From positions 30,001 through 62,000 of the forward strand of contig NZ_CP064926.1 of the NCBI RefSeq assembly GCF_018336915.1: a DNA stretch of 32,000 nt, read 5' to 3'. The position numbers were made by a program, and so were the translations under genes. The notes beneath the pieces are model-generated. The model searched no databases and was not told the DNA's origin. It saw nothing but the letters and a program-made list of their open reading frames with translations. The first letter of the stretch is position 1, and each line of letters begins with the position of its first letter. Source of the stretch: Acaryochloris marina S15 (lineage in GTDB: Bacteria > Cyanobacteriota > Cyanobacteriia > Thermosynechococcales > Thermosynechococcaceae). Shown here piece by piece: positions 5,688 through 32,000 of this stretch.

Positions 5688-5720
5688 GCAAGTCTTGATA
5701 GATATAGAATCAAGACTTGC
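5688..5720 (+). promoter_or_regulatory. 12-bp perfect stem-loop inside the IS4-like element, between the left IR and the transposase ATG
   Basis: GCAAGTCTTGAT (5688-5699), a 9-nt loop, then ATCAAGACTTGC (5709-5720). It lies 27 nt upstream of the ATG at 5747. Confidence 0.4.
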
Positions 5721-5746
5721 AATCCATCAATAATCTGCCTTCTACT

Positions 5747-9443: not shown

Positions 9444-9631
9444 GCGAATGGTGATGAGTTTATTATCTGACATGCTTGAAAATATAATGAGTGTTTTTGG
9501 TAAGAACCGCGAAAGGCTAATCAGCGGTTTGGAATACTTCAATTTTCACTAGACTCACTGTACAGATTATTGAAAGCACATTAAGACGATAATTGATTCT
9601 TTCGAAATAATTCGCCAATAGTGTCTCCCCT

Positions 9632-9808
9632 TCAATGACCCCAAACCAGCATCACTCTCTCCCGCTCCAACCACCCCCCGATCATCTCTTCAATCCGCTC
9701 CATCGTCTCGCCAGGACGCAGCTCAATCACTTGCCAAATATCGAACGTGTCCTCAATCTCAACGGCGCACTCCCAGCAAAATTCAGGAGTAGAAAAAACA
9801 TCCCTCAC
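9632..9808 (-). other. Small ORF or 3' gene remnant ending ..ERIEEMIGGWLERERVMLVWGH*
   Basis: The minus-strand frame is open from the response-regulator stop (9880) down to 9632 but has no ATG. The first plausible start is GTG at 9808 (58 aa). Its C-terminal peptide recurs in degenerate form at 11587-11651. Confidence 0.3.
9638..9702. repeat. 65-bp segment paralogous to 11587-11651
   Basis: Shared blocks are ACCCCAAAC .. CTCTCCCGCTCCAACC .. ATCTC(T/C)TCAATCCGCTCCA. On the minus strand both encode ERIEEM..LERERV..VWG followed by a stop. Confidence 0.6.
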
Positions 9809-9879
9809 AAAAGGCTTCCCTGTTCCCGCTACCGTAATCCAGTCTTGCCTAGAGATGTTTTCAGAAACAACCAGGTGTT

Positions 9880-10632
9880 CTAGCTGACCTGCTGATCAGC
9901 CAAAATTTGTGATTGATCATATTTCAGTGCATAACCTACACCACGAATCGTATGAATCATCACTGATTCTCCTAGATTCTCTTTGAGTTTATGACGCAAA
10001 CGTGACATGTGAACCTCGACTGTTCGCGTATCAACTATGGACTCTTCACCATATCCCCATACTTTCTGTAAAAGCTCCTGACGAGAAACAGCTTCTCCAA
10101 GTCGGCTAGCCAATAGTTCCAATAAACTAAATTCCATCTGGGTGAAGAAGAGACGTGCTCGGTCGTGGTAAATCTGCCGTTTATTTCTATCAATGTAGAG
10201 TGAGCCAATCTCAATCACACCAGGGATTTGATACTTCGATATTTTTACAGCATCCAGTCTGCGGAGAATAACCCGAACACGAGATTCTAGTTCTTTAGGT
10301 GAAAAGGGCTTGACCATATAATCATCAGCACCCATTTCTAAGCCAGTAATACGATCTGCTGTCCCTGACAGAGCGGTCAGCATAATAATCGGAATTCTCG
10401 ATATTTTGCGGACGGCTTGACAAACACCATAACCATCCAGTTTCGGCATCATCACATCTAGTACAATCAAGTCGGGATCTTGATGCTCAAAAACTTCTAG
10501 TGCTTCTATGCCATCAGCAGCAGTGAAGACCTTATAGCCCACCATAGTTAGCCGGGTTGATAATATTCGTCGAACCGAAGTTTCATCATCAACGACTAAA
10601 ATTGAATGCTGTTGGTGACTAGGATTATTCAT
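9880..10632 (-). CDS. OmpR-family response regulator, RpaB/Ycf27-like
   Basis: It has a REC domain (..ILVVDDE..DLIVLDVMMPKLDGYGVC..IIMLTALS..DYMVKPFSPKELE..) and a winged-helix output domain (..VEVHMSRLRHKL..IHTIRGVGY). No cognate histidine kinase lies nearby. Confidence 0.85.
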   Translation of the reverse strand: MNNPSHQQHSILVVDDETSVRRILSTRLTMVGYKVFTAADGIEALEVFEHQDPDLIVLDVMMPKLDGYGVCQAVRKISRIPIIMLTALSGTADRITGLEMGADDYMVKPFSPKELESRVRVILRRLDAVKISKYQIPGVIEIGSLYIDRNKRQIYHDRARLFFTQMEFSLLELLASRLGEAVSRQELLQKVWGYGEESIVDTRTVEVHMSRLRHKLKENLGESVMIHTIRGVGYALKYDQSQILADQQVS

Positions 10633-11495: not shown

Positions 11496-11586
11496 TCGCT
11501 ATGCTCGACTATTAGTTGAATCTTTTAGATAGCCCCAAATCTTACAATAGCTTCTTATTCGGTAATCTATTACTTGGTAACCCTCA

Positions 11587-11651
11587 ACCCCAAACACTCG
11601 CCACCCTCTCCCGCTCCAACCCCAGCCGCACCATCTCCTCAATCCGCTCCA
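11587..11651. repeat. 65-bp segment paralogous to 9638-9702 (degenerate gene 3' end)
   Basis: The minus strand reads LLERIEEMVRLGLERERVASVWG*. It is preceded by a short out-of-frame MRGIEETLDVFTGL*, so only a fragment remains. Confidence 0.55.
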
Positions 11652-11700
11652 ACAATTACAGACCAGTAAACACATCTAGAGTTTCTTCGATTCCCCGCAT

Positions 11701-12210
11701 ATGGCTCGAAACATTGAAATCAAGGCCCGCATCCACAACATTGAAACCATCACCAAACTGGTAGCTCAATTTGCCGATCAAGGACCCATCGAGATTGTGC
11801 AAGACGATACCTTTTTCCAGTGTGAGAATGGCAGGCTAAAGCTTCGATCACTATCCAAAACTGAAGGAAAGCTGATCTTCTACCGTCGCCAAGATCAACC
11901 CGGTCCAAAAGAATCCTTTTACCTGATCTCACCCACTTCATCGCCAGACAGCTTACGTGAAGCGCTGACGTTGGCCTATGGTCAAGCTGGTCGTGTCCGC
12001 AAGGTGCGAACCTTATTTCTCGTTGGTAGAACCCGCGTTCATCTGGATAAGGTTGAAGGGTTAGGTCATTTTCTTGAACTGGAAGTGATACTTGCAGAAG
12101 GTGAGTTACCAGAGACGGGGATTGAAGAAGCTCACCTGCTCATGGATAAGCTTGGGATCGAACAGTCTCAACTTATAGATAGAGCCTATGTCGATCTACT
12201 GATCGTTTAA
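11701..12210 (+). CDS. CYTH-domain protein (class IV adenylate cyclase / triphosphate tunnel metalloenzyme type)
   Basis: The N-terminal NIEIKAR is the ExExK CYTH signature. The ORF is 169 aa and carries ..GRTRVHLDKVEGLGHFLELEV.. as in CyaB-like proteins. Confidence 0.75.
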   Translation: MARNIEIKARIHNIETITKLVAQFADQGPIEIVQDDTFFQCENGRLKLRSLSKTEGKLIFYRRQDQPGPKESFYLISPTSSPDSLREALTLAYGQAGRVRKVRTLFLVGRTRVHLDKVEGLGHFLELEVILAEGELPETGIEEAHLLMDKLGIEQSQLIDRAYVDLLIV

Positions 12211-16912: not shown

Positions 16913-18242
16913 CAGGGTAAGCGCAAGAAAATCAAGCCTCTGAAAGGCTAGACTGTAAAGGAATAGAAGCGCCTAGAACTTTGAGCATATACGCTTCATC
17001 CATGCTCGCCCGTTTTAGTTTTTGACGGGTACTTTTCTTAAAGGACGTTTCTTGATTGAGAAGGTTGATGCTCCAGCGCCTCAGGATGGCCATGTTTTCC
17101 GGTGCATGTCCTGTGCGAATGCGGCTAGCATCTTCGCCAAAGGTCACATCTAAGACCCAGTGGAGTTGGTTCTCAATCGACCAATGCTGGCGGATGGCTT
17201 TGCCCAACTGCTGAGCATTTGGCGGTAGAGAGCTGATATAAAACATCACCTCATAGGTGGTTTTGTTCCACAAGTGGCGGGTCCGAGCGACCTTGACGAT
17301 GGTTTGCAAGCCCTTCCACTGCGCCTGCTTGTAGAGAGGACCCATCTGTTGAAGGGACACGGCCCAAACTTGTCGTTTCTCGCGACGATGGTGCCCTGCT
17401 TCCACCCGGGCATCATAGCTGTGCTCAATGCACTTAAACTCATTCGCTTCAGCCGTTTCAAACCATTGCTCAACCTGCTCAAACAGCGTGGGATGATTCT
17501 CCTTGAGGGCCAGCACATAGTCAGCCTCTTTAGCTTGAATGTGGCGGGCAATCTCGTGCTGAGTTCCCATTGCATCAATGGTAATAATGCACCCGGCAAT
17601 GTCTAATAGCTCTAGCAGTGCTGGAATAGCGGTAATTTCGTTACTCTTGTCTGCAACTTTGACCTGTCCTAGAAATAACCGATACTCACTGGCCCAAGCA
17701 CTGACCAGATGCAATGCGGATTGGTCTTGATTGCGATCATAGGAACCTCTGAGTTGTTTGCCGTCAATCGGTATCACTTGAGCGCCGAGGGTTGTCACTA
17801 CCTGATCCAACCAGTGATTGAAACTCCGCTCAAAAGCGGAGGGGCAAATACGCTCAAACACTCGTCGATAGGTGTCTGCTGTCGGTATCCCGGACGGTAG
17901 CCTCAGAAAACTCGACAACCAATCTTGATGGCTTAGACCATAGGTTTCAATGTCTTCCCACCCTTGTGCGCCACCTAAACTTGCCAATAGTCCAATCACG
18001 ACGATGCTGACAAACGGATGCTGGACACCTTGGCCTCCACGTGGATCAGGCAAATCTTCAAAACACTCGGACAATTGTTGATAAGCCTGATCGCAATCAC
18101 TGGCAGGCAGGAGTGACGAGGATGAGTCAGTGGAAGCTGGTGAGGAAGGAGGCTTGCTGAATCCTGTAGCCATGGGGAAACCCTTTTAACAGAATGGAGT
18201 TCCAAAGCATATTACAGCTTCATTTTTCTTGCGCTGCCCCTG
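16913..18242 (-). mobile_element. ISAs1-family insertion sequence, copy 2 (1330 bp) with 10-bp target duplication
   Basis: It has the same ends as copy 1. It is flanked by GCCAGGGGGG at 16903-16912 and 18243-18252. Confidence 0.9.
16932..18173 (-). CDS. ISAs1-family transposase, copy 2
   Basis: 413 aa. It differs from copy 1 at three residues: FLSLP/FLRLP, TAETY/TADTY, TFSED/TFGED. Confidence 0.85.
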   Translation of the reverse strand: MATGFSKPPSSPASTDSSSSLLPASDCDQAYQQLSECFEDLPDPRGGQGVQHPFVSIVVIGLLASLGGAQGWEDIETYGLSHQDWLSSFLRLPSGIPTADTYRRVFERICPSAFERSFNHWLDQVVTTLGAQVIPIDGKQLRGSYDRNQDQSALHLVSAWASEYRLFLGQVKVADKSNEITAIPALLELLDIAGCIITIDAMGTQHEIARHIQAKEADYVLALKENHPTLFEQVEQWFETAEANEFKCIEHSYDARVEAGHHRREKRQVWAVSLQQMGPLYKQAQWKGLQTIVKVARTRHLWNKTTYEVMFYISSLPPNAQQLGKAIRQHWSIENQLHWVLDVTFGEDASRIRTGHAPENMAILRRWSINLLNQETSFKKSTRQKLKRASMDEAYMLKVLGASIPLQSSLSEA

Positions 18243-18710
18243 GCCAGGGGGGTTACCCGGAACAATATTTGTAGATACCATAGTAAGTACTCCTGTCAGG
18301 GAGTCAAGAATCACGGCTTGAACGTTTGCAAGATGGGCAGGCCGTGGTTTGCAATTTTAACTAGAAAATATTTCTGTAAAAAACAGAAATGAGCAGGACT
18401 CCTGTCAGGGAACCCTGTTAAGAATCAACTGTTTAAAAGACGATTCAGCAAAGGATTGCCCTTGCCTTTTTCTTTTAAAAATAGTAGAAGAACAGAACTT
18501 AAAAACTTTGGCCTTGAAACCTTAATTTAATTCACTTGCAAGTACTCTAACTCTATCCAGCGAAATACGTCAAAGCTAGCTGTTACAGTCGTTTACAATG
18601 AACAACACTATTCATGCTAGCCAGAACGACCCATTCCTTAAACAGCCTCCACGCTATGCTTTCCAGGATTAGGCAGCTTAGCGAATACAACAGTTCCAGC
18701 ACCTTCCCAA

Positions 18711-18819: not shown

Positions 18820-20892
18820 TCATTTGCCATCACTATCCCTTTCAATATCCATCGAGATTCCAAACAATCTATTCATCGATTTCAAGGTGAACACAGCAGC
18901 TATTTCTGCATAGGGTTGCCATTGTTCTTCTGTCAGTACCCAGTACTCTCCTTCTCTCCAGGAGTAGTCAGTGACTAGCCTGCATCGTTGAGCTGCTCGA
19001 TACCAAGTATCAAATTCTTGTTGTTCACTTTGACGTACAATCCTTTCCTGTGTGGGTTCCTGAGTCTCAAGCAGTTTCAAGGGAAGCTGTTCTAAGTTCA
19101 GGTTTTGTGGGGATGGTTCTGGGACCAAACTCACAGGTTCAACTGGGGATTGCCTTCTTTGTTTCTTCCTCTGCTGGCGCAGCTGTACCACTTCCTGTTG
19201 TCGTCGCTGTTGCTGCTTGGCTTTACCAATTTTGTTCTGTAATCCCGGTGGTAAAGAGAGTTTCAACTGATCCCAATTTTGAATGGGAACGACCTTAGAA
19301 TTTCCCCCCAAACCCCCCTGATCTGGGACTTCGGAATCTGTAAGCGCCACTTTCGCCACCCTTTGGCCTTTGAGGGCCAGGGTGACGGTGGCTTGGATCT
19401 TCATCGTTGTTATTACAAACCCTACATTTATATAGAGTTGTAAAAGATCCTTTAATATCAGTAGTTCCAGCTTTCGCTGGTTTACAAGGTAATGATTGTT
19501 TGACCCTTGTTGTGTAATTTCCCCTTCCTGTATGGGTTCTGGGGGTTTCTGAGGAGTTTCTTCAACTAAATGATGTGGATGCCATAATTCCTTGTTTGAC
19601 CGTCTGTATAAGGTTTTCTGGCTACAGTGGGCTAGCTTTGAGATGGCTTGGGCACGAGCGGTAATTCCAGGGGGAAATTTATCGACTCGCTTCAGTTCTA
19701 AGACTGCTTTTTTGATCCGAGTTTGGGCGGCTTCTCGCTTGCTTTGGTGGTATCCGAAGTCTGCGGGAGCAATTTGTTTGTCGTGGTACTTGGCTTCTCT
19801 GGTGGGAGCTGTGCCGGTGGGCCAGTAATACCGCATGGCCCAGATTGCGACTTCATGACTACGACGCTCTATCTCATGCTGGTGGCGGCAATGCTCATAG
19901 AAGCCGGGGGTGTTCTGGGCAGTTTGGCATACGTATTCTGCTATCTGGTCTTCGGAGTCCATGCCCATAAATACACGGGCTTCGCAGGCGAGGATCTTTA
20001 GTTTCTCGTTGGTTTGGCCTGGGCCTGTCCAGCCTTGGGTTTTCTCTTCATGGATCCGCTCTTGCCAGGTGGCGAGGGAGCTGGCATGGCCTGATTTACG
20101 GACTTTGAAGTTCTGTTGTGCATCTGAGATCGCATGATGGAGACGCCCCATGTCCTGGCCATCGGCGCATAGCTCGAAGGCGTCAAGCCAATGTTCCAGG
20201 GACCAGGGTAGAGGAGTTAGATCGGCGTCGAGGGGATGGAAGCCGCTTCCAGGCTGCATGGGGAGTCGGAAGGCGGCAAAGAGACTAAAGCCTTTGCCTT
20301 TGGGTACATACCGTTTGGGGTTGGGGTAGAGTTCGCACTGCCCTCCATAGAACTTGATGCCGATGGCTTCTAGGTTGAGCTTGATGCAGTTGCTCAGCCA
20401 AAAGCTGCTGACGGTTTCAGGGAGGGGGAGGTATAGATGGAGTCCACTACTGTGGCTACTTTGGCAAAGGAGTGAGCGGCAAATACCAATGTCTTCTAGG
20501 GCATGGCGTATCTGAGGTAGCCATTGAGGATCGCTGGCTGGGTGATAGCGACTGTCTTTGTCGATGTCGAGGACGAGCCAACGGGTTTGGGCACTGGGCC
20601 TAACTCCGATCAGGCACTCAGGGTCTTGGTGATGACTCCACATCTCCACGGGGGAGAGGGGGAATTTCTTGATAGTTGCCCAATCTACTGGATCTCCTGG
20701 CTCTGGGGCAGAGGCAAAGATCCAGTCCCAACCGTTGGGGAATAAGGTAGCCAAATGCTTACCCACTGGATCAGCGGGTAAAGGGTCTTGTGGGCGTCGA
20801 TGAGGTACACGAGATCTATCCTCGTGCCCCATATATGCGGGTTCCGCGTTCACGGCAACCTCCCTATAGGTGTGCGGCGATAGGGAAGCCAC
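18820..20892 (-). CDS. Putative plasmid replication protein with primase-polymerase (AEP)-like N-terminal motifs
   Basis: 690-aa ORF. ..RWLVLDIDKD.. is a DxD-type motif I and ..SSGLHLYLPL.. is an sxH-type motif II, as in prim-pol domains. A Q/R/K-rich linker (..KAKQQQRRQQEVVQLRQQRKKQRRQ..) and a conserved-looking C-terminus follow. There is no Walker A motif. The start is uncertain: GTG 20892, GTG after AGGGAGG, or ATG 20832. Confidence 0.45.
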   Translation of the reverse strand: MASLSPHTYREVAVNAEPAYMGHEDRSRVPHRRPQDPLPADPVGKHLATLFPNGWDWIFASAPEPGDPVDWATIKKFPLSPVEMWSHHQDPECLIGVRPSAQTRWLVLDIDKDSRYHPASDPQWLPQIRHALEDIGICRSLLCQSSHSSGLHLYLPLPETVSSFWLSNCIKLNLEAIGIKFYGGQCELYPNPKRYVPKGKGFSLFAAFRLPMQPGSGFHPLDADLTPLPWSLEHWLDAFELCADGQDMGRLHHAISDAQQNFKVRKSGHASSLATWQERIHEEKTQGWTGPGQTNEKLKILACEARVFMGMDSEDQIAEYVCQTAQNTPGFYEHCRHQHEIERRSHEVAIWAMRYYWPTGTAPTREAKYHDKQIAPADFGYHQSKREAAQTRIKKAVLELKRVDKFPPGITARAQAISKLAHCSQKTLYRRSNKELWHPHHLVEETPQKPPEPIQEGEITQQGSNNHYLVNQRKLELLILKDLLQLYINVGFVITTMKIQATVTLALKGQRVAKVALTDSEVPDQGGLGGNSKVVPIQNWDQLKLSLPPGLQNKIGKAKQQQRRQQEVVQLRQQRKKQRRQSPVEPVSLVPEPSPQNLNLEQLPLKLLETQEPTQERIVRQSEQQEFDTWYRAAQRCRLVTDYSWREGEYWVLTEEQWQPYAEIAAVFTLKSMNRLFGISMDIERDSDGK

Positions 20893-21136
20893 GCATAGAT
20901 TTAAGACACGGTTGCCATTTAAGACAACTTAGGTTTAAAATCAAGGCACAACAAAGCCCAGGAAACCAAAACGCCAGTCGCCAAACAAGCTATAGGTTCC
21001 TGCCCTACCGAAAATGAAATAGGTACGACTTCCTCCCCTTCTGTTCTCAGTTGGGGTTTGGTCGTTTAAAGGGTTAGTTATCTCATATGTCACCTCCTCA
21101 ATCTTTTTTAGTATTAGACTTTAAATACACTGAAAC

Positions 21137-21152
21137 GCTTGATCGATCAAGC
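21137..21152. promoter_or_regulatory. 16-bp perfect palindrome GCTTGATCGATCAAGC upstream of the replication-like gene
   Basis: Read directly. It contains tandem GATC sites and lies about 250 bp upstream of the 690-aa ORF. Confidence 0.3.
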
Positions 21153-21475
21153 ATTCAGGCAATTTAGTTGGGGAGACACACAGCCCAAAACGAGTGGGGA
21201 AGTGTCAAGAATTGTCTCTTAAGTTGGCACTTAAGCAAGATCTAGGACCGCGATAGCTGTTGCTACTGCTGATCACAGGGAAAACTAAGCGAAACTCAAA
21301 TGGGGTTTGATAGCACAGGTCTCGTGGCTAGGAGCCAGGAATCAGGGACTGACTAAAAAAGATACCCTGGAATTAGAAAGTGCTTATCGTGATCCTACAA
21401 CAAAATCTGAATGCCAGAAAGTCAAAACATAAAATTCGCAGTACCTGCTGAGTCAGGTAGAAATTGATAGCGACT

Positions 21476-22961
21476 GGGCGTATTTAGCGGATCGGGGATG
21501 CCTTAGTTTTCGGAATGGTCACCTCTGGGAATAAGGAGTCAAACCGTTCATTGACCCAGGCAATTCTCAAGATCAGTAAATGGTTGAAACCATCCTCACT
21601 CCAGCGCATGCCAACTCCCTTAAAGCGCTGCTGAATCAACCACTTGCATGCACTTTCAACCATTCCTGACCCGAGAGGAATCTGTTGCTGTTCAAAGTGC
21701 CGATAACGGATGTGGTTATGATGGCGTTGGAAATAAGCCTGCACCTGGAGCAACGTTGAAAAAGACTTTCCCGTTAACAGTTGTGAGTGAATCAATATCG
21801 TCAAGGACCGTAATACAAGTAGGTGTTGCCCGTGTCGCAATTGGTGTCGCCAGTGCCGGAACCAGGCTTGGGCTTGAGCAGAGCGGGCATCTCCAAACAT
21901 CGCTTTAGTTGCTCGTGCCAGATGGCCTGCTGAATGAAAAAAGTCGAGGACTGCCACAGCACAATGAGAGAACAAGGTGCGATAGACTCGCCAGAAGCCT
22001 CGTCCCCCATCACTGAGCCAGATGACTTTTGGAGCAGATTCAAAGTCTTGTTTGTGAGCTTCGAGTTGAAGTAAAGGGATGAACTGGTCGATATCGCCCA
22101 ATACTGCCACCAGTCTTCGACGCAGTAATTGGGGGACCTCCTTTTTAGCTCGGGTAACCCGTGTTCCCAGGCGAGCTAAGATGGCGACTTTGACTTCTCG
22201 CCACTGGATTTTTCCCTTGGGTGAGTTCGGGGTGGGGCGAAAGGGGACCATCACACCATCGGCGGCAATGGCCAAAGGTAGAGCAGATAACATCTCTGAA
22301 ATCGCTTCACAAGGGGCCTGAGTCCCTGATGATTGAGCGTTGAGTTGAGCTTCTAATTCCTGCTGAGCTTTGTTACCCACGGATTGCACCCAGTTCCACA
22401 AACTGGATGGACTCACGGATAGACCACTCCACTGACCCAGCATCCAACTGGCCAGTTCATAGGGCATGAACAGACTCAACAAGCAGCCCAGACGCACCAG
22501 TTCTTCGCTGCTGTGCTGATAGGGGGCAATCCCAATGGCTTGATCCAGGGGAGTCAACAGACTGCCTGGACATCCTTTGGGACAACGGCCCACCCGTCGC
22601 TTTCAAGAGATAGTGCCTACCAGTGTCTGCATCTGACGAGATTCCCATCCCTTCGAATGTAAGCGGGTTCCGCAGGTAGTACATACAGGCCATACAAATA
22701 CTGCTTTCGCGCGCCTTGAGAGTTCATCCTCCAGAAGACAGCGAGCTAGAAACAAGCCCATTTGCAGAACGATATAAACCATCTGACTCAGGCTGGTTGA
22801 TACTTTGAGTGCTTCAGTTTGTTCTAGAAATTCGTCATGGGCTAGCACGGTTAGCAATTGCGATGGTAGGGTCATGATAGTTTTTTGGTTCGGGTACAGG
22901 ATCTATTGTCCTTGACCCGTTTTTCTTTGAGCCATGCATCCCCGATCCTTTGCTTACGCCC
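21476..22961 (-). mobile_element. ISKra4-like insertion sequence, copy A (1486 bp) with 9-bp target duplication
   Basis: The terminal IRs are GGGCGTA..GGATCGGGGATGC. It is flanked by ATAGCGACT at 21467-21475 and 22962-22970. The family name is assigned from memory of transposase features and is tentative. Confidence 0.8.
21484..22875 (-). CDS. Transposase (ISKra4-like) as two same-frame ORFs separated by one TGA
   Basis: ORFs 22875-22603 (90 aa) and 22593-21484 (369 aa) are in the same frame. The TGA (22605-22603 on the minus strand) lies inside a Cys-rich segment: ..CTTCGTRLHSKG..GTIS*KRRVGRCPKGC.. Confidence 0.75.
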
Positions 22962-22975
22962 ATAGCGACTTTTTG

Positions 22976-23227
22976 ATGCTATGTCACGTCTATATCGGTT
23001 TTTTTCAAAGGGTTTATAGTCGTAAATCTTTAGAAATATTCTGTATCCCTTTCGGTTCTAAGACCTAAGTTTTTTATCTGGTTAATATAAATATCCTAAA
23101 TGCTAGGTCAAAAGCTAGGTCTGACTCTGGAATCTTAAAAATACTGAAGATTGTAGAAAAATAAAAAGCTATGTCAATGCTATGTCATGAGGATTTATTT
23201 TGAAATGCTAGGTCAAAAGCTAGGTCT
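22976..23227 (+). repeat. Array of ATGCTAGGT / AGCTAGGTC / (A/T)GCTATGTCA motifs 3' of the ParB-like gene pair
   Basis: The 25-bp unit AAATGCTAGGTCAAAAGCTAGGTCT occurs identically at 23098-23122 and 23203-23227. ATGCTATGTCA is at 22976-22986 and 23177-23187, and AGCTATGTCA is at 23167-23176. All are on the same strand. Confidence 0.8.
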
Positions 23228-23242
23228 TGGTCCAACAAAAAC

Positions 23243-24337
23243 CTATAACTTCTTAAACGGCTGATTGGTAACAGACCATGCAATGAGGGCATCCGAGCAA
23301 CGCAAGGGATCAGGTTCAGCACAGTAACAGGGGCATTCCAGTTCATCTATCAAGATAAAAAGAGATGGATCGATCAGGTTAATCATAACTACAGGATCGT
23401 TTGCATCTGTTGTCCCAGACAAGCAGTTTTCTGTAATCGCTCTTAATGTCTCTAAGTGAAAGTCCTCTCCATGCGATGTATAAAAAGACAAGGCATTCAT
23501 AGCATTTTCAGGAATTGCAGGAGGCCATTGATCTCGTGATTCTAAAAAGACTAAAAACACTCCAATCTCAGGAGGCAAGAGTTTTTGAAATTTCATAGAA
23601 GGAGGATCGCCACAAAATAAATAATGTGACTTGCCAAGCTTCCAGACATCACCTTTGTTAACTTTCCCAGGTTGAGTTTCAGCGATTTTTGGAGTAGCTG
23701 TTTTCTTCTTTGTGCGTTTTCGTTTAGGTATTTTTCCCTCTTCCGACTGTGGTCTGTTTCGGATATTTGTTGTGTCCATCTCAAAAGTAGTGCCGCCTCT
23801 AATAGCCATTCGGGTATTAGGATCTATCTCATCTAGTCCATCACTATCTATCTGAGAATAGGTAGCAGACAACTCGCGTCTTACCGTTCCAACAAATTTA
23901 CCGCTTACTCCGCAACGTCTTCCAATCTCTCGGTCACTCCACTTTTTCCATTCACGGTCGCGCACCAGTCTATTAACAGCACGTCTTTTATCTGCGTTCG
24001 TTCTTCTTAGGCCATGTGCTGCATTGGCCCCTACTGAGTGCAGAACGGCATCTCGCAGTTCTCCGGGAAAGACTTCCGCAGAAATTTCCTTCTCGTCAAT
24101 GGCTTCTTTAGCCCGGACCCTATGAAATCCATCAGCTAACCAATAGTCCTTACCGTCATAGTAAATTACGACTGGGGGAAAAGTAGCTCCTTGCTTCATG
24201 TCCTCGGCATAGTCTGCTACCACCTCTTCGTAAAGCTTTGAGCGAGGCTGAGTTCCGCCATCCATGCGAATTTTAGCTATCTCAATTGATTCGATAGAAG
24301 ATTCTGAGGATTCGCTCAGCGGCTTTGGAGAAGGCAT
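23243..24337 (-). CDS. ParB/Srx-fold N-terminal domain protein with HTH-like middle, K-rich linker and degenerate methyltransferase-like C-terminus
   Basis: ..IEIAKIRMDGGTQPR..FPPVVIYYDGKDYWLADGFHRVRA.. is the DGxHR ParB-like nuclease-domain motif. It is followed by ..ANAAHGLRRTNADKRRAV..WSDREIGRRCGVS.., then ..KRKRTKKKT.., then ..GDVWKLGKSHYLFCGD.. Confidence 0.75.
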   Translation of the reverse strand: MPSPKPLSESSESSIESIEIAKIRMDGGTQPRSKLYEEVVADYAEDMKQGATFPPVVIYYDGKDYWLADGFHRVRAKEAIDEKEISAEVFPGELRDAVLHSVGANAAHGLRRTNADKRRAVNRLVRDREWKKWSDREIGRRCGVSGKFVGTVRRELSATYSQIDSDGLDEIDPNTRMAIRGGTTFEMDTTNIRNRPQSEEGKIPKRKRTKKKTATPKIAETQPGKVNKGDVWKLGKSHYLFCGDPPSMKFQKLLPPEIGVFLVFLESRDQWPPAIPENAMNALSFYTSHGEDFHLETLRAITENCLSGTTDANDPVVMINLIDPSLFILIDELECPCYCAEPDPLRCSDALIAWSVTNQPFKKL

Positions 24338-24446
24338 TCAAGTCCTAGCGGTAGATGACAACATACCGTCATAAAAGCATCAAAGCCCATTAGCAACAAG
24401 CAATCCAGAAAATTACAATTATTGTATGAAGTTGCGTAAAGCACTA

Positions 24447-25121
24447 TCAATTCACAGATGATTGTTGATTGATACGGTTATCAATCAACATATCAACCCA
24501 TATTCTCAAAAAATAATCTGAGATTAACGGCCCAAAGGTGGTTGAGTCCATGTTGAGGGCAGAAACTAAGTCAAAATTCTTGGCTACCAATGGTTTTACA
24601 TTGCTTTGTGGTTTCCCAATCTTATTCATCGCAACCACCATATTGTAGAGATCGGTCACTCTCTGCTCTCTTGACATATGCACATGGTTTGCATGGGTTC
24701 CACAATGAATAGCGATTTCTTCATCACTCCATTTTTGCCAGACTGGATGACCAATGAGTTTAAAGACATTCCTATCTAAATCAGCCTGTGTGAGCTTCAA
24801 CTCACTTTCTGTACTGGCTTCCATAGCGTATAACACTGCATCTTGCTGATTCCCTTGCCAGACATCAGCTAAAATTTCTAATTCACCTATGGCTTTCTTG
24901 GCATGAAATCGATGAAAACCATCTACCAGCCAGCGTTTTGACCCATTGTAGAAAACGATTACAGGTGGAAATTTATCTCCTTGGCACATGGCTTCTGCAT
25001 ATTCTTCAACCACATGACTATGCACCTGGCAGCGTGGTTGGACCTCTTCATCAAGCGTGATCAAAGACAGTCTAATTATTTCCAAGTCCTGAAAACCATT
25101 GCTTGATAAGTCTCTCTTCAT
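24447..25121 (-). CDS. Second, more divergent ParB/Srx-fold domain protein (paralogue of 23243-24337)
   Basis: ..LSLITLDEEVQPR..FPPVIVFYNGSKRWLVDGFHRFHA..WQKWSDEEIAIHCGT.. runs parallel to the neighbouring protein. The likely ATG is at 25121 (MKRDLSS); the longest ORF starts at TTG 25139. Confidence 0.7.
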   Translation of the reverse strand: MKRDLSSNGFQDLEIIRLSLITLDEEVQPRCQVHSHVVEEYAEAMCQGDKFPPVIVFYNGSKRWLVDGFHRFHAKKAIGELEILADVWQGNQQDAVLYAMEASTESELKLTQADLDRNVFKLIGHPVWQKWSDEEIAIHCGTHANHVHMSREQRVTDLYNMVVAMNKIGKPQSNVKPLVAKNFDLVSALNMDSTTFGPLISDYFLRIWVDMLIDNRINQQSSVN

Positions 25122-25268
25122 CCACAACTCCAAGGGCAAGGGAAAATCTGGGAGAATTCACAAAATACTCCGTTTTTCTATCAAAGCACAGCAGTTGAAA
25201 GTTCCATATACCCACATAGGATTTATTTACAGTTAAGGAATATTTGACTATGCGGTGGCCTAAAGAAC

Positions 25269-25332
25269 GCTATGTGGATGCTAGGTAGATGCTAGGTTTA
25301 CTCCCCCAACAAATGCTAGGTTAATGCTAGGT
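25269..25332 (+). repeat. Four copies of ATGCTAGGT in 55 bp in the divergent promoter region between the ParB-like gene and the STAND gene
   Basis: ATGCTAGGT occurs at 25278-25286, 25289-25297, 25313-25321 and 25324-25332. A GCTATGTG lies at 25269-25276. All are on the plus strand. Confidence 0.85.
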
Positions 25333-25989
25333 GCAAGTAAAGAATTCAATGAATTTTACTCAAGCGGCAAAGATCGTCAATAGCATCTCTATGCAAGAAA
25401 AAGGACGGAAGCAAACTGAAGCTGAAATCATTGCGCTGAAAGCAGCCTGGGACAAAATTGATTACGCATTAGCGATTAAAAATTCTAAAGCTAACTACAG
25501 CGAGAATTATATACGCAGTGATGCTGGTCGAAAGCTTTGGCTCATGCTGTCTGGGCATTTTGGTGAGAAGATTACCAAAATGTCTCTCAGAAGATACTTT
25601 GAGAGACATCCTGAACTCTTAGATCCTGACAAAAGGAATCGAAAAATCTTAGGAGGGTATCCTCCTGATATTGAAAATTTCTTAGGTCGTCAGAGTGAAG
25701 CAGAAGAACTCAAACAATGGTCGAAGACGATTCAATGTGTATGTATTGATGGGATTGCTGGGATTGGTAAGACCTGTTTAGCAGCAAAAGCGATAAACGC
25801 AATATTCCACCAGCCTTCCCAATTCGAACACTATATTTGGCTACCTGTCCATTACAAACCTAGCCTCAATGAATTACTGGACTCCCTAATAGAGCATTTG
25901 GGGGCTACAAAGGGAGAAGAAACTCAACTAAACCGTAGTTCTATACTCATCCAATATTTACAACGGCACAGATGCCTAATTGTATTGGA

Positions 25990-27475
25990 GGGCGTAAGCA
26001 AAGGATCGGGGATGCATGGCTCAAAGAAAAACGGGTCAAGGACAATAGATCCTGTACCCGAACCAAAAAACTATCATGACCCTACCATCGCAATTGCTAA
26101 CCGTGCTAGCCCATGACGAATTTCTAGAACAAACTGAAGCACTCAAAGTATCAACCAGCCTGAGTCAGATGGTTTATATCGTTCTGCAAATGGGCTTGTT
26201 TCTAGCTCGCTGTCTTCTGGAGGATGAACTCTCAAGGCGCGCGAAAGCAGTATTTGTATGGCCTGTATGTACTACCTGCGGAACCCGCTTACATTCGAAG
26301 GGATGGGAATCTCGTCAGATGCAGACACTGGTAGGCACTATCTCTTGAAAGCGACGGGTGGGCCGTTGTCCCAAAGGATGTCCAGGCAGTCTGTTGACTC
26401 CCCTGGATCAAGCCATTGGGATTGCCCCCTATCAGCACAGCAGCGAAGAACTGGTGCGTCTGGGCTGCTTGTTGAGTCTGTTCATGCCCTATGAACTGGC
26501 CAGTTGGATGCTGGGTCAGTGGAGTGGTCTATCCGTGAGTCCATCCAGTTTGTGGAACTGGGTGCAATCCGTGGGTAACAAAGCTCAGCAGGAATTAGAA
26601 GCTCAACTCAACGCTCAATCATCAGGGACTCAGGCCCCTTGTGAAGCGATTTCAGAGATGTTATCTGCTCTACCTTTGGCCATTGCCGCCGATGGTGTGA
26701 TGGTCCCCTTTCGCCCCACCCCGAACTCACCCAAGGGAAAAATCCAGTGGCGAGAAGTCAAAGTCGCCATCTTAGCTCGCCTGGGAACACGGGTTACCCG
26801 AGCTAAAAAGGAGGTCCCCCAATTACTGCGTCGAAGACTGGTGGCAGTATTGGGCGATATCGACCAGTTCATCCCTTTACTTCAACTCGAAGCTCACAAA
26901 CAAGACTTTGAATCTGCTCCAAAAGTCATCTGGCTCAGTGATGGGGGACGAGGCTTCTGGCGAGTCTATCGCACCTTGTTCTCTCATTGTGCTGTGGCAG
27001 TCCTCGACTTTTTTCATTCAGCAGGCCATCTGGCACGAGCAACTAAAGCGATGTTTGGAGATGCCCGCTCTGCTCAAGCCCAAGCCTGGTTCCGGCACTG
27101 GCGACACCAATTGCGACACGGGCAACACCTACTTGTATTACGGTCCTTGACGATATTGATTCACTCACAACTGTTAACGGGAAAGTCTTTTTCAACGTTG
27201 CTCCAGGTGCAGGCTTATTTCCAACGCCATCATAACCACATCCGTTATCGGCACTTTGAACAGCAACAGATTCCTCTCGGGTCAGGAATGGTTGAAAGTG
27301 CATGCAAGTGGTTGATTCAGCAGCGCTTTAAGGGAGTTGGCATGCGCTGGAGTGAGGATGGTTTCAACCATTTACTGATCTTGAGAATTGCCTGGGTCAA
27401 TGAACGGTTTGACTCCTTATTCCCAGAGGTGACCATTCCGAAAACTAAGGCATCCCCGATCCGCTAAATACGCCC
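25990..27475 (+). mobile_element. ISKra4-like insertion sequence, copy B (1486 bp), inverted relative to copy A, with its own 9-bp target duplication
   Basis: It is flanked by TGTATTGGA at 25981-25989 and 27476-27484. The encoded ORFs are identical in amino-acid sequence to copy A. Confidence 0.9.
26076..27467 (+). CDS. Transposase (ISKra4-like), two same-frame ORFs separated by TGA at 26346-26348
   Basis: 26076 and 26358 are in the same frame (the difference, 282, is divisible by 3). The sequence reads ATC TCT TGA AAG CGA CGG GTG GGC CGT TGT. Confidence 0.8.
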
Positions 27476-28179
27476 TGTATTGGATGAAGTTGATTTAATG
27501 CTGCAGACGAATCAAGAGACCAGTGAATATGAGGTTTTCTTCAGGCGAATAATTGAGGAAAAACATCAAAGTTGCGTTTGGCTGACTGCTAATTGTTTTC
27601 CTGAAGGCTTATCCAACTACAAAAACATGGGTTTCCCGTTTGAAAGCTTGCACTTAGGCCCACTCCAAGCTAACGAAGTACAGAAGCTCGTTGAGTCACA
27701 TGGAATTACATTTGATGCCGACTGGGAAAAGATGGTCCACACTTGTATGGGCAATCCACTTCTCCTGCATTCTGTTCTTAGAAAGGTCTCAAAGGTACTT
27801 GGAGGGCAGGCTGACTTAGTTAACCAAAAAACAAGTCTGGCACTAAACGAATTTGAGTACCTACTTAATAAACTATTTACCAATACCAATGATATTAAAG
27901 AATTAGAGATCATCGTACTTTGCACAATTGCATCTATTGATCGAACTCAAAGCGGTATATCGTTATTAGCATTAACTCAAAACATCCTAGAAAATCATCC
28001 AGATATATCTGAGCTGGATATATTCAATAGCCTTGAACGCCTTCAAAACCATAATTTACTGAGTCTTGTAACAGATACAGGATCAATAGAGATTGTGATG
28101 GTAGACATAATTAAGAAGTATATTTTACGGAATTATATAAATAATGACCAAAATACCTCATCTATCTTGACCTAGATCA

Positions 28180-29913
28180 GTGTCTTACTGTATTAATCCA
28201 AATTGCACTCAACGAGAGAATCCACCTGGCATTGATTTATGCCAAGGGTGTGGCACCTCTTTGCTGATCAAAGATAAGTACAGGCTCTTGTGCCCCATAC
28301 GCTCTTTGGATACGAGCAAACAGCTTTACCCCTCTGAGACTGAAATTTTTGAGTGCGTTGATACTACTGGAAACCCTAAAGATCCCCCAAACACTCCAAA
28401 AATTTTCAAAATCCTCAATACAGAAGACCCTAAGCTTAAGCAACTTGCGAAGAGGGAAGCCTATGCTCTGATGGGATTATATGAATACCCTAATACGCCT
28501 AAAGTTCACATCCATGACTATTTCGAGTATCAGGATGAGCATTTCTCAGACACGCTGATCTGCACTGCCATTGAGAAAATTGAAGGGGTAGATCTAAAAG
28601 TATGGCTTGCTGAGCATGGCCAGGCTAACTCTACACAGCTCAAGGATTGGTTAGGGCAACTATGTGAAATTCTGGCAGTTGTTCATGAGAAAAATCTATT
28701 CCATCGAGATATCAAGCCTTCCAATATCATGATCCGACCGGATGGCAGGTTAGTATTGATTGATTTTGGGACTGTTCGGAAAATTACCAATACCTATATC
28801 GCCAAATTGAGCGGCCCAGACAACAAATCACCGATACAAGGGGCTACAGATGTGACGATGGTACGCACATTTGGTTATTCTCCCCCGGAACAGCTCTATG
28901 GCAAAGCTATGCCGCAATCCGACTTCTATGCCTTGGGGCGAACGATGATTCACTTAGCCACGGGAGTCCACCCCAATAATTTACCGGATGACGATGATCG
29001 ATTGTCATGGCGAGATCAGGCTGAGAGTATCGATCTAGACCTTGCTGACTTGATTGATCGCCTTTGTGATCCTATTCCCACTGAACGCCCCAAGAATACC
29101 GCTGAAATCCTGGCGGATCTCGCCCATCCTCCTCGAACAACCGCTGTCTCTATACGACCAAACTTCCTTCAGTCAAAATGGATTTATGTAGCTATAGGTA
29201 TGGGTATTGCAGTAGCCATTAACTGGGGCGTGATCCACTATCTCCAACCCGGTGAGATGTTGTCTGCTCGACAACATCTCACTCAAGGTTTGTCTGAGCT
29301 TAGGGTTCATAATTTAGCTGCAGCTCAAGCTTCTCTCTCTGAATCCATTCGGCTTAATCCGAAGAACGAAGAAGCCCATTACTATTTAGCGTTTACTTGT
29401 GCTGAAGTTCGTAATCATGATTGCGCCCTAAATCATTACAAAAAGGCCATTGACCTCAATCCCAATGACTGGGAAAGCCAATTTGCCTTGGCGAGTCTCT
29501 ATGAAAAACTAGAAAAGGAAGACCAGGCTAAACCCCTACTGGAGTCTGCCCATAAGATTGATCCCAAAGCACCTGAACCGCTCAATAACCTAGCTCGTTT
29601 GGCACTTTTAGAAGGTAATGCAAGCGAAGGTCAACAACTGGCCCAAAAAGCGCTCAAGCTAACAAAAAGGCCCATTATGAAGTCCATCATATACAAGAAC
29701 TTAGGCTGGGCTGCTCTCCTCCAAAAGGATCAGAAACTGGCCTATCAGTATCTGAATAAATCGATTGAGTTCAACCCTGAACTCCCTGATCCCCATTGTC
29801 TCCTCAATCAGATAGAGCCTAGTCTTGAGTATCGAGAAGCCTGCATTAGACTAATTTCAGAGCGATCAGAGGGCCGTCAATGGCGCAAGGTATTATTGGA
29901 GAAAGAAAACTAA
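28180..29913 (+). CDS. Hanks-type Ser/Thr protein kinase with N-terminal 4-Cys zinc ribbon, one TM helix and C-terminal TPR repeats
   Basis: The zinc ribbon is CINPNCTQRENPPGIDLCQGCG. The catalytic loop HRDIKPSN is at about 28702-28725, with DFG at 28762-28770 and SPPEQ following. The TM helix is WIYVAIGMGIAVAINWGVIHYL. TPR-like repeats follow (..AHYYLAFTCAEVRNHDCALNHYKKAIDLNPND..). The GTG start lies 4 nt after the STAND stop. Confidence 0.85.
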   Translation: MSYCINPNCTQRENPPGIDLCQGCGTSLLIKDKYRLLCPIRSLDTSKQLYPSETEIFECVDTTGNPKDPPNTPKIFKILNTEDPKLKQLAKREAYALMGLYEYPNTPKVHIHDYFEYQDEHFSDTLICTAIEKIEGVDLKVWLAEHGQANSTQLKDWLGQLCEILAVVHEKNLFHRDIKPSNIMIRPDGRLVLIDFGTVRKITNTYIAKLSGPDNKSPIQGATDVTMVRTFGYSPPEQLYGKAMPQSDFYALGRTMIHLATGVHPNNLPDDDDRLSWRDQAESIDLDLADLIDRLCDPIPTERPKNTAEILADLAHPPRTTAVSIRPNFLQSKWIYVAIGMGIAVAINWGVIHYLQPGEMLSARQHLTQGLSELRVHNLAAAQASLSESIRLNPKNEEAHYYLAFTCAEVRNHDCALNHYKKAIDLNPNDWESQFALASLYEKLEKEDQAKPLLESAHKIDPKAPEPLNNLARLALLEGNASEGQQLAQKALKLTKRPIMKSIIYKNLGWAALLQKDQKLAYQYLNKSIEFNPELPDPHCLLNQIEPSLEYREACIRLISERSEGRQWRKVLLEKEN

Positions 29914-29965: not shown

Positions 29966-30856
29966 ATGGATAAATTTTTTTCTAGGAATTATTTAGGGTT
30001 AGTAACTTTGGGGGGAGTTGCAATTCAAACCCTGGTTCCTACTATTCCTGTTATTGCTGAACCGATAAAAAAATGTCCACCCGTTATCCGTTCACTGAAG
30101 ACGAATCGGCTTTACTGTGCTCATGAGTTAAAGGTGCTTCAACGGAAGAGAATGGCGGAAAAAGATGCAGGTTTTCTCTGTCTCCTAGTCCGAGCGCTTA
30201 TTCCCGCAAATGACTGGATTAAAACGAATCAATGCTTCCCAAAAACCAATTTTTCCAGTGAAACGGGGAAAAAGATTATTCCCAGGCCCAAGGGATCGAG
30301 AACGGCATTCAAACTGTTGAAGCCATTGGGAAACATACAACTCACACCTCAACCGATCATCGCTTGGCAACCCGTTCCCCAGGCCCGATATCGCATCACG
30401 GTCGAACATGGGGGTCGATGGCTATGGTCTCATACAACCAAAACCACAGAAATCCCCCTCCCTGCTTCTAAGCCGTTAAAGGAGGGTAACACCTATAAAA
30501 TCAGTGTCGTTGCCTTCAGGGATAACCAACCGATTGCGGAGGATATCACCACGATTCGGTTAGTCAAATCTCAACAGATCCAAGGCATTGACAATCTGAT
30601 TCAGCAAGCCCGCAACCTTGCTCCAGATCCTCTTAGTCGAGGATTAGACAAGGCGATGATGCTATACCATTTGGGGCTATTAGATGCTGCTGTTAAGGAG
30701 TTACGCGCCCTCACCCAATATCAAGAGCCAGAGGTGTACTCCCAATTGGGCTTAATTCACCAGGAAGCGGGACATCAGGACATGGCTCAAGACTATTTTG
30801 ACAAAGCCTCAGAACTCGCTAAGCGTCCATCTAAGCCCATCTCACAGTTGAACTAG
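29966..30856 (+). CDS. Secreted/periplasmic protein with beta-rich middle and C-terminal TPR-like helices
   Basis: An N-terminal hydrophobic signal (..YLGLVTLGGVAIQTLVPTIPVIAEP) is followed by ..PIIAWQPVPQARYRITVEHGGRWLWSHTT..GNTYKISVVAF.. The C-terminus reads ..AMMLYHLGLLDAAVKELRAL..YSQLGLIHQEAGHQDMAQDYFDKA.. It overlaps the CHAT gene end by 15 bp in convergent orientation. Confidence 0.6.
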   Translation: MDKFFSRNYLGLVTLGGVAIQTLVPTIPVIAEPIKKCPPVIRSLKTNRLYCAHELKVLQRKRMAEKDAGFLCLLVRALIPANDWIKTNQCFPKTNFSSETGKKIIPRPKGSRTAFKLLKPLGNIQLTPQPIIAWQPVPQARYRITVEHGGRWLWSHTTKTTEIPLPASKPLKEGNTYKISVVAFRDNQPIAEDITTIRLVKSQQIQGIDNLIQQARNLAPDPLSRGLDKAMMLYHLGLLDAAVKELRALTQYQEPEVYSQLGLIHQEAGHQDMAQDYFDKASELAKRPSKPISQLN

Positions 30857-32000
30857 GACGTAATTAGCCCAATAGTAGGGATGGCCATAGTCTGATCTTA
30901 AAAGCTTCAATTGAGCCTGTCTCAACCGTTCATGCATCGACCGGGTTTTGTTGATATCGGCGTAAAACGCTCGGGACAACAGTACAGACGCAGCAGCATC
31001 CGCTGACCACAGGGAGGCGACCGTATTTCTCGCCCCCGATTGAGCGGATAGACCCGCTAATCCCAACAATGATCTCGGATCCCCTGCGGCACTGTGGCAG
31101 GCGCTTAAAAACAGCAGATCCAGTCCTTCGCCATCCGCTTCTAGAACTCCACTAATCTCTTGGACAGTCAAGGGCCGGTCCCACGCTAACAGAAAGGTCT
31201 GAGTTGGATCTGAGCTAAATTGCCCGTGGGTACTTAAGTGAAGGATCTTGGCGGTGGGCCGTGCCACATTATCCAATAAGTTATCGTGGGTAAAATCTTG
31301 ATTGAGTAAAAGCTTCGCATCCGGGTATTGAGTCTGAATCGCATCGACTTCTTGGGCGACTTCTGGCAAGGGTTCCAATAAGGTTTCTTCTAAGCTGGGG
31401 CTTTGGGTAGAGACTCCCCCGATAACGACGCCAGGCTGATTGGATGAGTTGTAGGAGGTTTTCACATAACCATTCGACAGGGCGATGGGGTTGCGTTCAA
31501 TCAGATACCGTTCACCATCATGGAGAAACCCCATTGGAATATTTTGGAGCGGCCCATTCAGGTGAAATTTGATGGGGACATTTTCTGGTATCAGTTTTTG
31601 GGATAGGGCTGGGGCCAGAATAAGCTGGTGCAACGATTGGGCGAGGGGCAGGTATTGCTCTGGGGTGGTGTCAAAGAACCGTTTATCCTGAATCATCGTC
31701 GTTATTTCAGCGGTGATGCGCTGGAGCTGCTCGGGGTCCACGGAATAGTGACGATCTCCCACGATCACCGTCGTTTGGTCAGCTAGATCCAGGATTTGCA
31801 CGACCACTTCACCAATGGGGTTTTGGTCGGCTAGAGGAGCTAGATTGGTCTCCCCACATCGAAGGTAGTTTTGTAATTCAGCGAGTCTCAAGCGTTGATT
31901 GGTTTGAGCTACGAGCTTTAAATTGGGGTTTTCTGATTTGAGCAGTAGGCCCATATACTGTTGGTATACGGGTTCCACTTCGGCTTTAAAGGAGAACTGC
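30842..32000 (-). CDS. CHAT-domain (caspase-like) protease, C-terminal part; N-terminus lies beyond the right window edge
   Basis: The caspase-type dyad is present in context: ..ILHLSTHGQF.. (His codon about 31226-31228) and ..LLFLSACHSAAGD.. (Cys codon about 31097-31099). The C-terminus ..YGHPYYWANYVLV.. is typical of CHAT. The frame stays open from 31978 to position 32000 (..QFSFKAEVEPVYQQ..). Confidence 0.8.
   Translation of the reverse strand, partial: QFSFKAEVEPVYQQYMGLLLKSENPNLKLVAQTNQRLRLAELQNYLRCGETNLAPLADQNPIGEVVVQILDLADQTTVIVGDRHYSVDPEQLQRITAEITTMIQDKRFFDTTPEQYLPLAQSLHQLILAPALSQKLIPENVPIKFHLNGPLQNIPMGFLHDGERYLIERNPIALSNGYVKTSYNSSNQPGVVIGGVSTQSPSLEETLLEPLPEVAQEVDAIQTQYPDAKLLLNQDFTHDNLLDNVARPTAKILHLSTHGQFSSDPTQTFLLAWDRPLTVQEISGVLEADGEGLDLLFLSACHSAAGDPRSLLGLAGLSAQSGARNTVASLWSADAAASVLLSRAFYADINKTRSMHERLRQAQLKLLRSDYGHPYYWANYVLVQL

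Follow-up and report, generated by a model that had tools for sequence, protein, structure and literature searches.

What do two arrays of a short direct repeat do on a plasmid when they bracket a pair of ParB-like genes with no ParA beside them? The question is raised by a stretch of 32,000 nucleotides from Acaryochloris marina S15 (contig NZ_CP064926.1, positions 30,001 to 62,000), here called the window, whose own coordinates are used below unless a plasmid or locus is named. The two ParB-like proteins, ParB1 and ParB2, are encoded between a replication gene and a cluster containing STAND, kinase and CHAT genes. From the sequence comparisons, the module most likely serves the plasmid backbone as a regulator acting on predicted binding sites of its own, and not as a DNA-partition centromere. 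Tentatively, and with close to but less than even confidence, we favour the reading that the arrays are operators for the ParB-like helix-turn-helix (HTH) proteins, which would control the divergent promoters of the ParB and STAND-kinase-CHAT genes together with a promoter directed toward the replication region.

The 9-mer ATGCTAGGT occurs six times in the window, at 23100, 23205, 25278, 25289, 25313 and 25324, always on the + strand; dinucleotide-preserving shuffles gave an expected count of 0.20 +/- 0.47, and none of 100 shuffles reached six. Its core, GCTAKGT, was found 15 times against 6.1 expected, with 12 of the 15 falling in two clusters and all 12 on the + strand. The left array (22976..23227, +) has seven core sites (22978, 23102, 23114, 23168, 23179, 23207 and 23219), arranged as three head-to-tail pairs and one distal site, and the 25-bp unit AAATGCTAGGTCAAAAGCTAGGTCT is present there in exact copies at 23098 and 23203, 105 bp apart. 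The right array (25269..25332, +) has five (25269, 25280, 25291, 25315 and 25326) at steps of 11, 11, 24 and 11 bp. The original prediction had described the six same-strand copies, held them to exceed chance in 32 kb, and noted the exact 25-bp repeat and four right-hand copies in 55 bp; all of this holds, and the degenerate copy at 25269 adds a fifth. Sites within a pair are 11-12 bp apart and head-to-tail, that is, they form helically phased direct repeats. All lie on the same strand and are non-palindromic, the internal CTAG being the only self-complementary part of the repeat.

About 16 bp separate the left array from the ParB1 stop codon, and the right array starts ~150 bp upstream of the ParB2 start and ends 16 bp 5' of the conserved ATG of an NB-ARC gene, referred to below as nSTAND. 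Read on the - strand, the left sites have the sequence TTGAC(A/C)TAGC, which resembles a -35 element, and a consensus match to a promoter, TTGACA-16-TACAAT, lies within the middle left pair (23177..23150, - strand). The pattern TTGAC[AC]-16/17-T[AG]CAA[TC] is retained in five lineages, as read by eye from the alignment of the left array.

Both genes between the arrays are on the - strand. ParB1 (23243..24337; 364 amino acids, aa) combines a ParB N-terminal NTP-binding fold, an HTH, a K/R-rich linker and a C-terminal alpha/beta domain. ParB2 (24447..25121) has 224 aa from the ATG at 25121, which is the form on record (P0121), and its open reading frame (ORF) remains open to 25139 (230 aa). The two are 42% identical over 151 aa, within their first ~150 residues, and both contain DGFHR, which bears out their earlier description as ParB/Srx-fold paralogues. 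Pfam PF02195 (ParB_N) matched ParB1 weakly (E = 0.0018, under the curated cut-off). Foldseek aligned the ParB1 model with ParB, Noc and KorB over 145-168 columns, covering the N-domain and HTH, at E about 3e-8, and matches to ParB, Noc, KorB, PadC and Srx ranged from 3e-8 to 1e-4; as judged from this model, the N-terminal domain of ParB1 belongs to the ParB/Srx superfamily. The original prediction also held that a DGxHR motif replaces the GERRxRA CTP-binding box. The motif is indeed present in both proteins, but the box is modified and not absent, since DGFHRVRA of ParB1 aligns column for column with GERRWRA of Myxococcus xanthus ParB (E to F and R to H). Box II thus reads GFHRVRA in ParB1 and GFHRFHA in ParB2, with the second Arg retained in both and RA in ParB1 only. 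Nucleotide binding by ParB1 is possible, although the Glu of box II is lost; according to one study, nucleotide binding by ParB-fold proteins is not predictable from sequence (PMC12704722).

ParB2 is the more degenerate of the two. It retains DGFHR, its HGLRR..DKR block, typical of the family, is degenerate or lost, and it ends in a distinct tail, FDLxSALNMDSTTFGPLISDYFL..WVDM. On the plasmid pMB02, ParB2 (L003 7230-7890) is frameshifted and annotated with 156 aa, the remainder being readable in another frame, and the arrays are retained. In each of the 10 Acaryochloris plasmid records where ParB1 is matched over its full length, the small ParB-like gene precedes the large one.

The C-terminal domain of ParB1 (residues 223-364; 23246-23671, - strand) was modelled as an alpha/beta fold with a pLDDT of 93 and has a conserved Cys cluster, ECPCYCAE...RC, with C242, C335, C339 and C347 invariant. 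Searches of Pfam, NCBIfam and PDB sequences returned nothing for these 140 aa. Pfam found no ParB dimerisation domain in the C-terminus and the modelled fold had no significant match in the PDB; the weak fold matches included beta-class DNA methyltransferases (E 0.03-0.4), among them M.MboIIA and M1.HpyAVI. Residues about 15-195, which comprise the N-domain and HTH, share 45-57% identity with the N-terminal half of many a ParB-methyltransferase-type protein, and the motif GDVWKLGKSHYLFCGD resembles, by eye, the junction that precedes the catalytic domain in the ParB-DNA methyltransferase fusions of phages and plasmids. Unlike these fusions, ParB1 has neither a PF01555 (N6_N4_Mtase) match nor a DPPY catalytic motif, carries FLVFLESRD where they have DPPY-type motifs (again read by eye), and ends in a domain of only about 140 aa. 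Given the similarity of its N-terminal half, ParB1 could have arisen from a fusion of this kind, with the C-terminal domain at most a remnant.

We compared the locus with its relatives on other plasmids. The closest is pMB05 of Acaryochloris sp. 'Moss Beach', which is 99.3% identical over a 3-kb core (22962-25989). Both arrays are found at equal positions in pMB05, in pMB02, which is a paralogous plasmid co-resident with pMB05 in one strain, and in four metagenomic or SRA contigs (L092-L095), with sites also on the partial contig L012 from a metagenome-assembled genome. ParB1 is 76% identical to that of the window in pMB02 and 72-86% identical in the four contigs. The left layout of three pairs is retained in pMB05, pMB02, L092, L093 and L094, and the right array in pMB05, pMB02 and L092-L095, where its terminal pair always lies 16 bp before a conserved ATG/GTG-AATTT start. 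The number of sites differs between lineages, and the motif, its phase and its strand are constant. In L096, where ParB1 is 67% identical, pairs of the one-base variant TGATAGGT occupy both array positions, and pREB6 has a TGATARGT pair after the ParB1 stop.

Could these repeats have no dedicated binder, and be local duplications or look-alike promoter elements that persist through plasmid kinship? The lineages with full arrays are indeed fairly close (ParB1 at least 72% identical). In the left array, 83% of the columns within sites are invariant and 50% of those in the flanks, and in the right array 77% and 32% (Fisher p = 7e-5 and 4e-6, respectively), although these figures are inflated in favour of the sites because the repeats anchor the alignment. 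Even so, the flanks have diverged while the sites have changed mostly at the single degenerate K (G/T) position, motif, phase and strand persist through changes in site number, and the variant of L096 is coherent across both of its arrays. The sites are thus under purifying conservation, and we consider an origin with no dedicated binder distinctly improbable.

On pMB05 the motif is also largely confined to this locus, ATGCTAGGT occurring eight times on the whole plasmid (148.8 kb), six of them in the two arrays. A search of genome contigs with a ParB1 family profile mostly returned proteins of the ParB-methyltransferase type that matched in their N-terminal part; only at six loci (L012-L017) was most of the query covered, nearly in full at L012-L016 and in two segments at L017, and L012 was the sole new array-bearing lineage. 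A scan of metagenome contigs for TGCTAKGT-N3/4-TGCTAKGT gave at least 120 stretches; in 80 of them, tblastn found no relatives of ParB1, ParB2, nSTAND or Rep, and these are chance or unrelated repeats. Arrays without the genes in a relative would have told against a module of protein and sites; within the Acaryochloris loci, to which the answer is limited, the arrays accompany the genes. A motif proper to every ParB clade was not demonstrable, the seven array-less loci (pREB1, pREB3, pREB4, pMB01, pMB03, L098 and L016) having only isolated weak pairs of other motifs beside their ParB genes.

The arrays are inherited with the ParB2-ParB1-NB-ARC block and follow the ParB clade, not the Rep clade, so the original view of a DNA-binding protein with its cognate sites is strengthened by conservation across plasmid lineages. 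The idea of an isolated module has given way, since the locus of the ParB pair is a conserved backbone of Acaryochloris plasmids. The likeliest binder would be ParB1, perhaps together with its degenerate paralogue ParB2, because its conservation is the highest, its HTH is clear, and even pREB6 keeps the left pair beside its stop codon. Since the sites are direct repeats of 7-9 bp placed 11-12 bp apart, ParB1 molecules would be expected to bind head-to-tail along one face of the helix. On the right array they would cover the probable core promoter and the 5' end of the nSTAND-kinase-TPR operon and would sit upstream of the divergent ParB2-ParB1 promoter. On the left array they would cover the conserved -35/-10 pair, whose predicted transcript leaves the ParB operon in the direction of the non-coding region upstream of rep and of the primase-polymerase-like gene, and could gate transcription that way. 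Orphan ParB-fold proteins with roles other than segregation are documented on mobile elements (PMC12704722).

Several observations weigh against this assignment of the arrays to the ParB-like proteins. The number of promoter-like matches in the region equals the shuffle expectation, the promoter calls being matches to a consensus only. Known ParB-family HTH dimers mostly bind palindromes rather than direct repeats. No comparable arrays were found beside the ParB pairs of pREB1, pREB3, pREB4, pMB01, pMB03 and L098, and because ParB pairs elsewhere on Acaryochloris plasmids do without them, the arrays are, by sequence comparison, a speciality of the clade with the nSTAND cluster and a long ParB2. 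Protein and sites also do not covary cleanly. The HTH regions of ParB1, ParB2 and nSTAND do not separate cleanly by motif type. In ParB1, lineages that share a motif differ in the recognition-helix region, and this region is near-identical in L094 and L096, which have GCTAKGT and TGATAGGT, respectively. Finally, a convergent gene is present on the far side of the left array in pMB05, L095 and L096, so that a promoter within that array would not directly feed rep.

The right-hand array raises the main alternative, that the binder is the N-terminal HTH of the adjacent nSTAND protein, which would then act as a STAND transcription factor switched on by a signal, like AfsR/SARP or MalT, with its oligomers on the phased repeats regulating both its own conflict operon and the ParB and rep genes, the ParB genes being targets. 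In the window, the 5' part of nSTAND (25349..25989, +) encodes the beginning of the NTPase behind an N-terminal domain of ~105 aa, which in orthologues is HTH_VMAP-M9, and the 3' part is at 27485..28175 (+). Precomputed Pfam assignments place PF26355 (HTH_VMAP-M9) at the N terminus of NB-ARC orthologues; a Pfam scan recovered no HTH in the NB-ARC protein of the window or of pMB05. The right array abuts the nSTAND start codon in every lineage, and for this reason a link to the STAND gene, suggested in the original prediction, is reasonable. Full arrays are restricted to the clade with the nSTAND-kinase-TPR-CHAT cluster. The targets of SARP/AfsR regulators are promoter-overlapping direct repeats of a heptamer, spaced at 11 bp, the geometry of the sites here, and as nSTAND may do, these regulators join an NB-ARC STAND protein to an N-terminal DNA-binding domain. 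That domain is of the OmpR type with a BTAD domain in SARP/AfsR, unlike the HTH_VMAP-M9 of the nSTAND orthologues, whose DNA binding is putative. The left array adjoins the ParB1 stop and not nSTAND, lying over 2 kb from the latter. In pREB6, a TGATARGT pair follows ParB1, yet the nSTAND N-terminus is just 29% identical, and pMB03 has NB-ARC fragments and no arrays. We regard binding by nSTAND as unlikely, though worth weighing seriously.

A different role is suggested by the ParB fold itself. The arrays could be loading sites analogous to parS, from which nucleotide-gated clamps of the ParB-like proteins spread or bridge, giving a second system of segregation, pairing or silencing that is independent of ParA or uses a ParA in trans. 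The union of a ParB fold with an HTH and the retained arginines of box II in ParB1 are in keeping with this, as is the place of the module within the conserved backbone of a low-copy megaplasmid; Acaryochloris plasmids are present at about 1 copy per chromosome (PMC11086944). Two arrays in the same sense also bracket the operon, as parC1 and parC2 do in pB171. In parC1/parC2 of pB171 par2, and in parC of R1, short direct repeats spaced by about one helical turn flank the operon or promoter and serve as both operator and centromere. Those systems differ in having ribbon-helix-helix binders and an adjacent ParA or ParM NTPase, neither of which is present here.

The features of a type Ia ParABS system were not found at the locus, namely an adjacent ParA, a palindromic parS and a C-terminal ParB dimerisation domain. 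The absence of an adjacent ParA had been noted before, and a Pfam scan of the window ORFs, apart from several small ones, likewise detected none. On pMB05, a canonical operon of ParA (250 aa) and ParB (312 aa) lies at 112924-114614 (L101 12924-14614), ~20 kb from the ParB-like pair; its ParA, the only one found on pMB05, is 56-64% identical to the ParA of many cyanobacterial plasmids. The motif is shared by pMB02 and pMB05, which coexist, and the K position varies freely within each plasmid, leaving no plasmid specificity; a centromere or incompatibility determinant should not tolerate such sharing. Moreover, none of the sites is palindromic, Phe replaces the catalytic Glu of GERR, and the C-terminal domain is not that of a ParB dimer. 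ParB2 is frameshifted in pMB02, and insertion sequences (ISs) have entered the module in both pMB05 and the window, yet the plasmids were not lost. The ParA-ParB operon elsewhere, the shared motif, the direct repeats and their overlap with promoter-like sequence therefore weaken the earlier suggestion of a self-contained centromere without ParA. That the arrays are the centromere of the plasmid is unlikely from these sequence data, and the wider view of ParB-like clamps loading on them is rather unlikely.

Returning to the arrays as operators, the positions of the sites would fit regulation of the kind known for KorB of the IncP plasmid RK2, with the right array 16 bp before the nSTAND ATG and a -35-like hexamer in the left sites. 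KorB likewise has a ParB N-domain and HTH (Foldseek matches 8qa8 and 8qa9), is encoded by the backbone, and represses backbone genes from multiple specific sites at or near promoters. Its OB sites, however, are palindromic and scattered round the plasmid, its CTP pocket is of the GERR type, and IncC (a ParA homologue) and KorA are adjacent, whereas the locus here has phased direct repeats in two local arrays, GFHRVRA as box II and another C-terminal domain. No KorA/IncC operon context was found at the locus, the neighbours being the nSTAND and Rep-like genes. VirB with virS, Noc with NBS, StrR and DndB are similar in that ParB-fold proteins have been turned to transcription control or DNA organisation, and differ in being single-acting and in recognising inverted repeats; we know of no tandem paralogue pair or bracketing arrays in any of them. 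Homologues of ParB1 are labelled 'streptomycin biosynthesis regulator' in several databases, and identity to the Streptomyces proteins is ~30% over about 110-145 aa. The module could thus be the regulatory part of a megaplasmid backbone, akin to KorB, VirB or StrR, with repression on binding and any switch by nucleotide as possible features.

If the left array does gate transcription toward the replication region, its surroundings become relevant. The Rep-like protein (18820..20892, -; 690 aa) has relatives named 'bifunctional DNA primase/polymerase' or 'Primase C-terminal 1 domain-containing' and gave no sequence match in Pfam, NCBIfam or the PDB; it is of a different family from the Rep of the CyRepA replicons of other cyanobacteria. 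A primase-polymerase-like gene follows the ParB pair, directly or past one gene, in six of the six records where this could be compared. Upstream of rep is a GATC-rich non-coding region of ~600 bp (20893..21466, -), conserved across five plasmid clades, with counterparts at L003 2150-2935, L010 7900-8420, L011 7100-7640 and L098 5219-5908. It contains the blocks TTTGTTGTAGGATC and GATCAGCAGTAGCAACAGCTAT, a palindrome GCTTGATCGATCAAGC followed by TTTCAGTGTATTTAAA, and a hairpin, GGCTCCCT...TAGGGAG, at the start codon. An Rfam scan of the window, this region included, returned no matches, and the region is a candidate origin or structured leader. Because the ParB pair, the primase-polymerase-like gene and this non-coding region are conserved across plasmids, the locus is part of the plasmid backbone and, from its sequence, probably the replication region.

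This neighbourhood could suggest that the arrays are iterons or copy-control sites of the primase-polymerase-like Rep, acting in origin function or handcuffing like incC/incA of P1. They are direct repeats with helical spacing, and in the commonest arrangement the left array borders the conserved region upstream of rep. In the iteron-Rep replicons (P1 incC/incA, F incB/incC), two direct-repeat arrays also bracket a gene in the replication region. There, however, the arrays surround and bind the initiator, whereas here they surround the ParB-like pair and show no covariation with Rep. The Rep of pMB01 is 94% identical to that of the window and the Rep of pREB1 76%, both without arrays, and pMB02, with arrays, has a Rep that is 89% identical. 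Distinct repeats adjoin rep instead: ten iteron-like units of 25 bp, TATACGCCGGAGTTGCAGGT, in pMB05 (L002 6281-6600), with the same family in L096 (8274-8340), and five to six tandem units of 78 bp upstream of rep in pREB1, pMB01 and pREC2 (L007 9424-9830, L006 9688-9950 and L008 10057-10430). Neither the 25-bp nor the 78-bp type was found upstream of the Rep-like gene in the window. The right array, furthermore, is more than 4 kb from rep and inside the promoter of another gene. As the arrays do not travel with the replication gene and pMB05 has its own iterons beside rep, we excluded them as Rep iterons, against the iteron-type module that had been proposed; some part in copy control by Rep is very improbable.

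On the other side of the module, nSTAND is syntenic with genes for a Ser/Thr kinase-TPR protein (28180-29913, +) and a TPR protein (29966-30856, +), followed by a CHAT protease-like protein (30842-31978, -) that extends past its listed ORF start. The kinase gave a PADLOC match to PD-T4-6, a family of defence kinases, at E = 1.5e-85. This kinase-TPR/TPR/CHAT cluster (L002 12869-17915 in pMB05) accompanies the ParB pair in every array-bearing lineage of sufficient length. A bolder possibility is that the ParB-derived pair, of which one protein has a relic methyltransferase-like domain and the other is degenerate, couples megaplasmid replication to the STAND-kinase-CHAT system through the phased repeats, used as loading or operator sites. 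The ParB-like switch of the plasmid would then time the expression of a potentially suicidal defence operon and of the rep leader, and a ParB-fold protein on non-palindromic arrays would link replication and defence with no ParA. We consider such coupling improbable.

The tandem paralogues, the bracketing arrays of phased direct repeats, the relic C-terminal domain and the place between a replication gene and a STAND-kinase-CHAT cluster make the locus unusual, and we found no description of the module in the literature searched, Acaryochloris papers included. Acaryochloris cells carry up to ten low-copy megaplasmids, and the replication, coexistence and cargo regulation of these are essentially unstudied. 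The locus of the ParB pair is a common backbone of these megaplasmids, and the arrays offer a precise cis-element for an orphan ParB-fold protein. Such proteins are widespread on mobile elements with few functions assigned (PMC12704722). Binding of phased direct repeats by ParB1 or ParB2 would widen the range of DNA recognition modes in the ParB family, and control of the STAND-kinase-CHAT operon by the module would be a case in which the maintenance region of a plasmid governs a defence island. Even an ordinary local repressor with its operators would be a useful annotation for cyanobacterial vector design.

Two ISKra4-family insertions, one of which breaks the STAND gene, had been overlooked in the original prediction. 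Copy 1 (21476..22961, -; 1486 bp) is flanked by the 9-bp target duplication ATAGCGACT (21467-21475 and 22962-22970); it lies 16 bp left of the left array and parts the array from the region upstream of rep. Copy 2 (25990..27475, +; 1486 bp), with the 9-bp duplication TGTATTGGA (25981-25989 and 27476-27484), splits nSTAND, which is intact in pMB05. The two copies are identical and mutually inverted. Each copy is bordered by a separate target duplication, and neither is present in pMB05, so that the two are simple insertions; a composite transposon, or an inversion by the pair, was rejected, the relatives having the segment without the IS copies. In pMB05, an IS630 element lies between the two ParB-like genes, and in pMB02 the left array is separated from ParB1 by an ISKra4-like element with a DUF6431 gene.

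Other features of the window lie to the left of the replication gene. Two direct IS copies at 8112-9445 and 16913-18255, 98% identical over the part compared, encode a 413-aa DDE transposase (DDE_Tnp_1_assoc and DDE_Tnp_1), and their terminal inverted repeats are about 73-84% complementary. A C-rich repeat of 65 nt, 80% identical between its copies at 9638-9702 and 11587-11651, falls inside two possibly paralogous ORFs of 82 aa (9635-9883 and 11516-11764) that adjoin a response regulator. The cargo at 1610-7114 includes a NorB-like haem-copper oxidase (781 aa), an alternative oxidase, a Crp-family regulator and a further DDE transposase, and pentapeptide-type repeats are present at 7374-7528.

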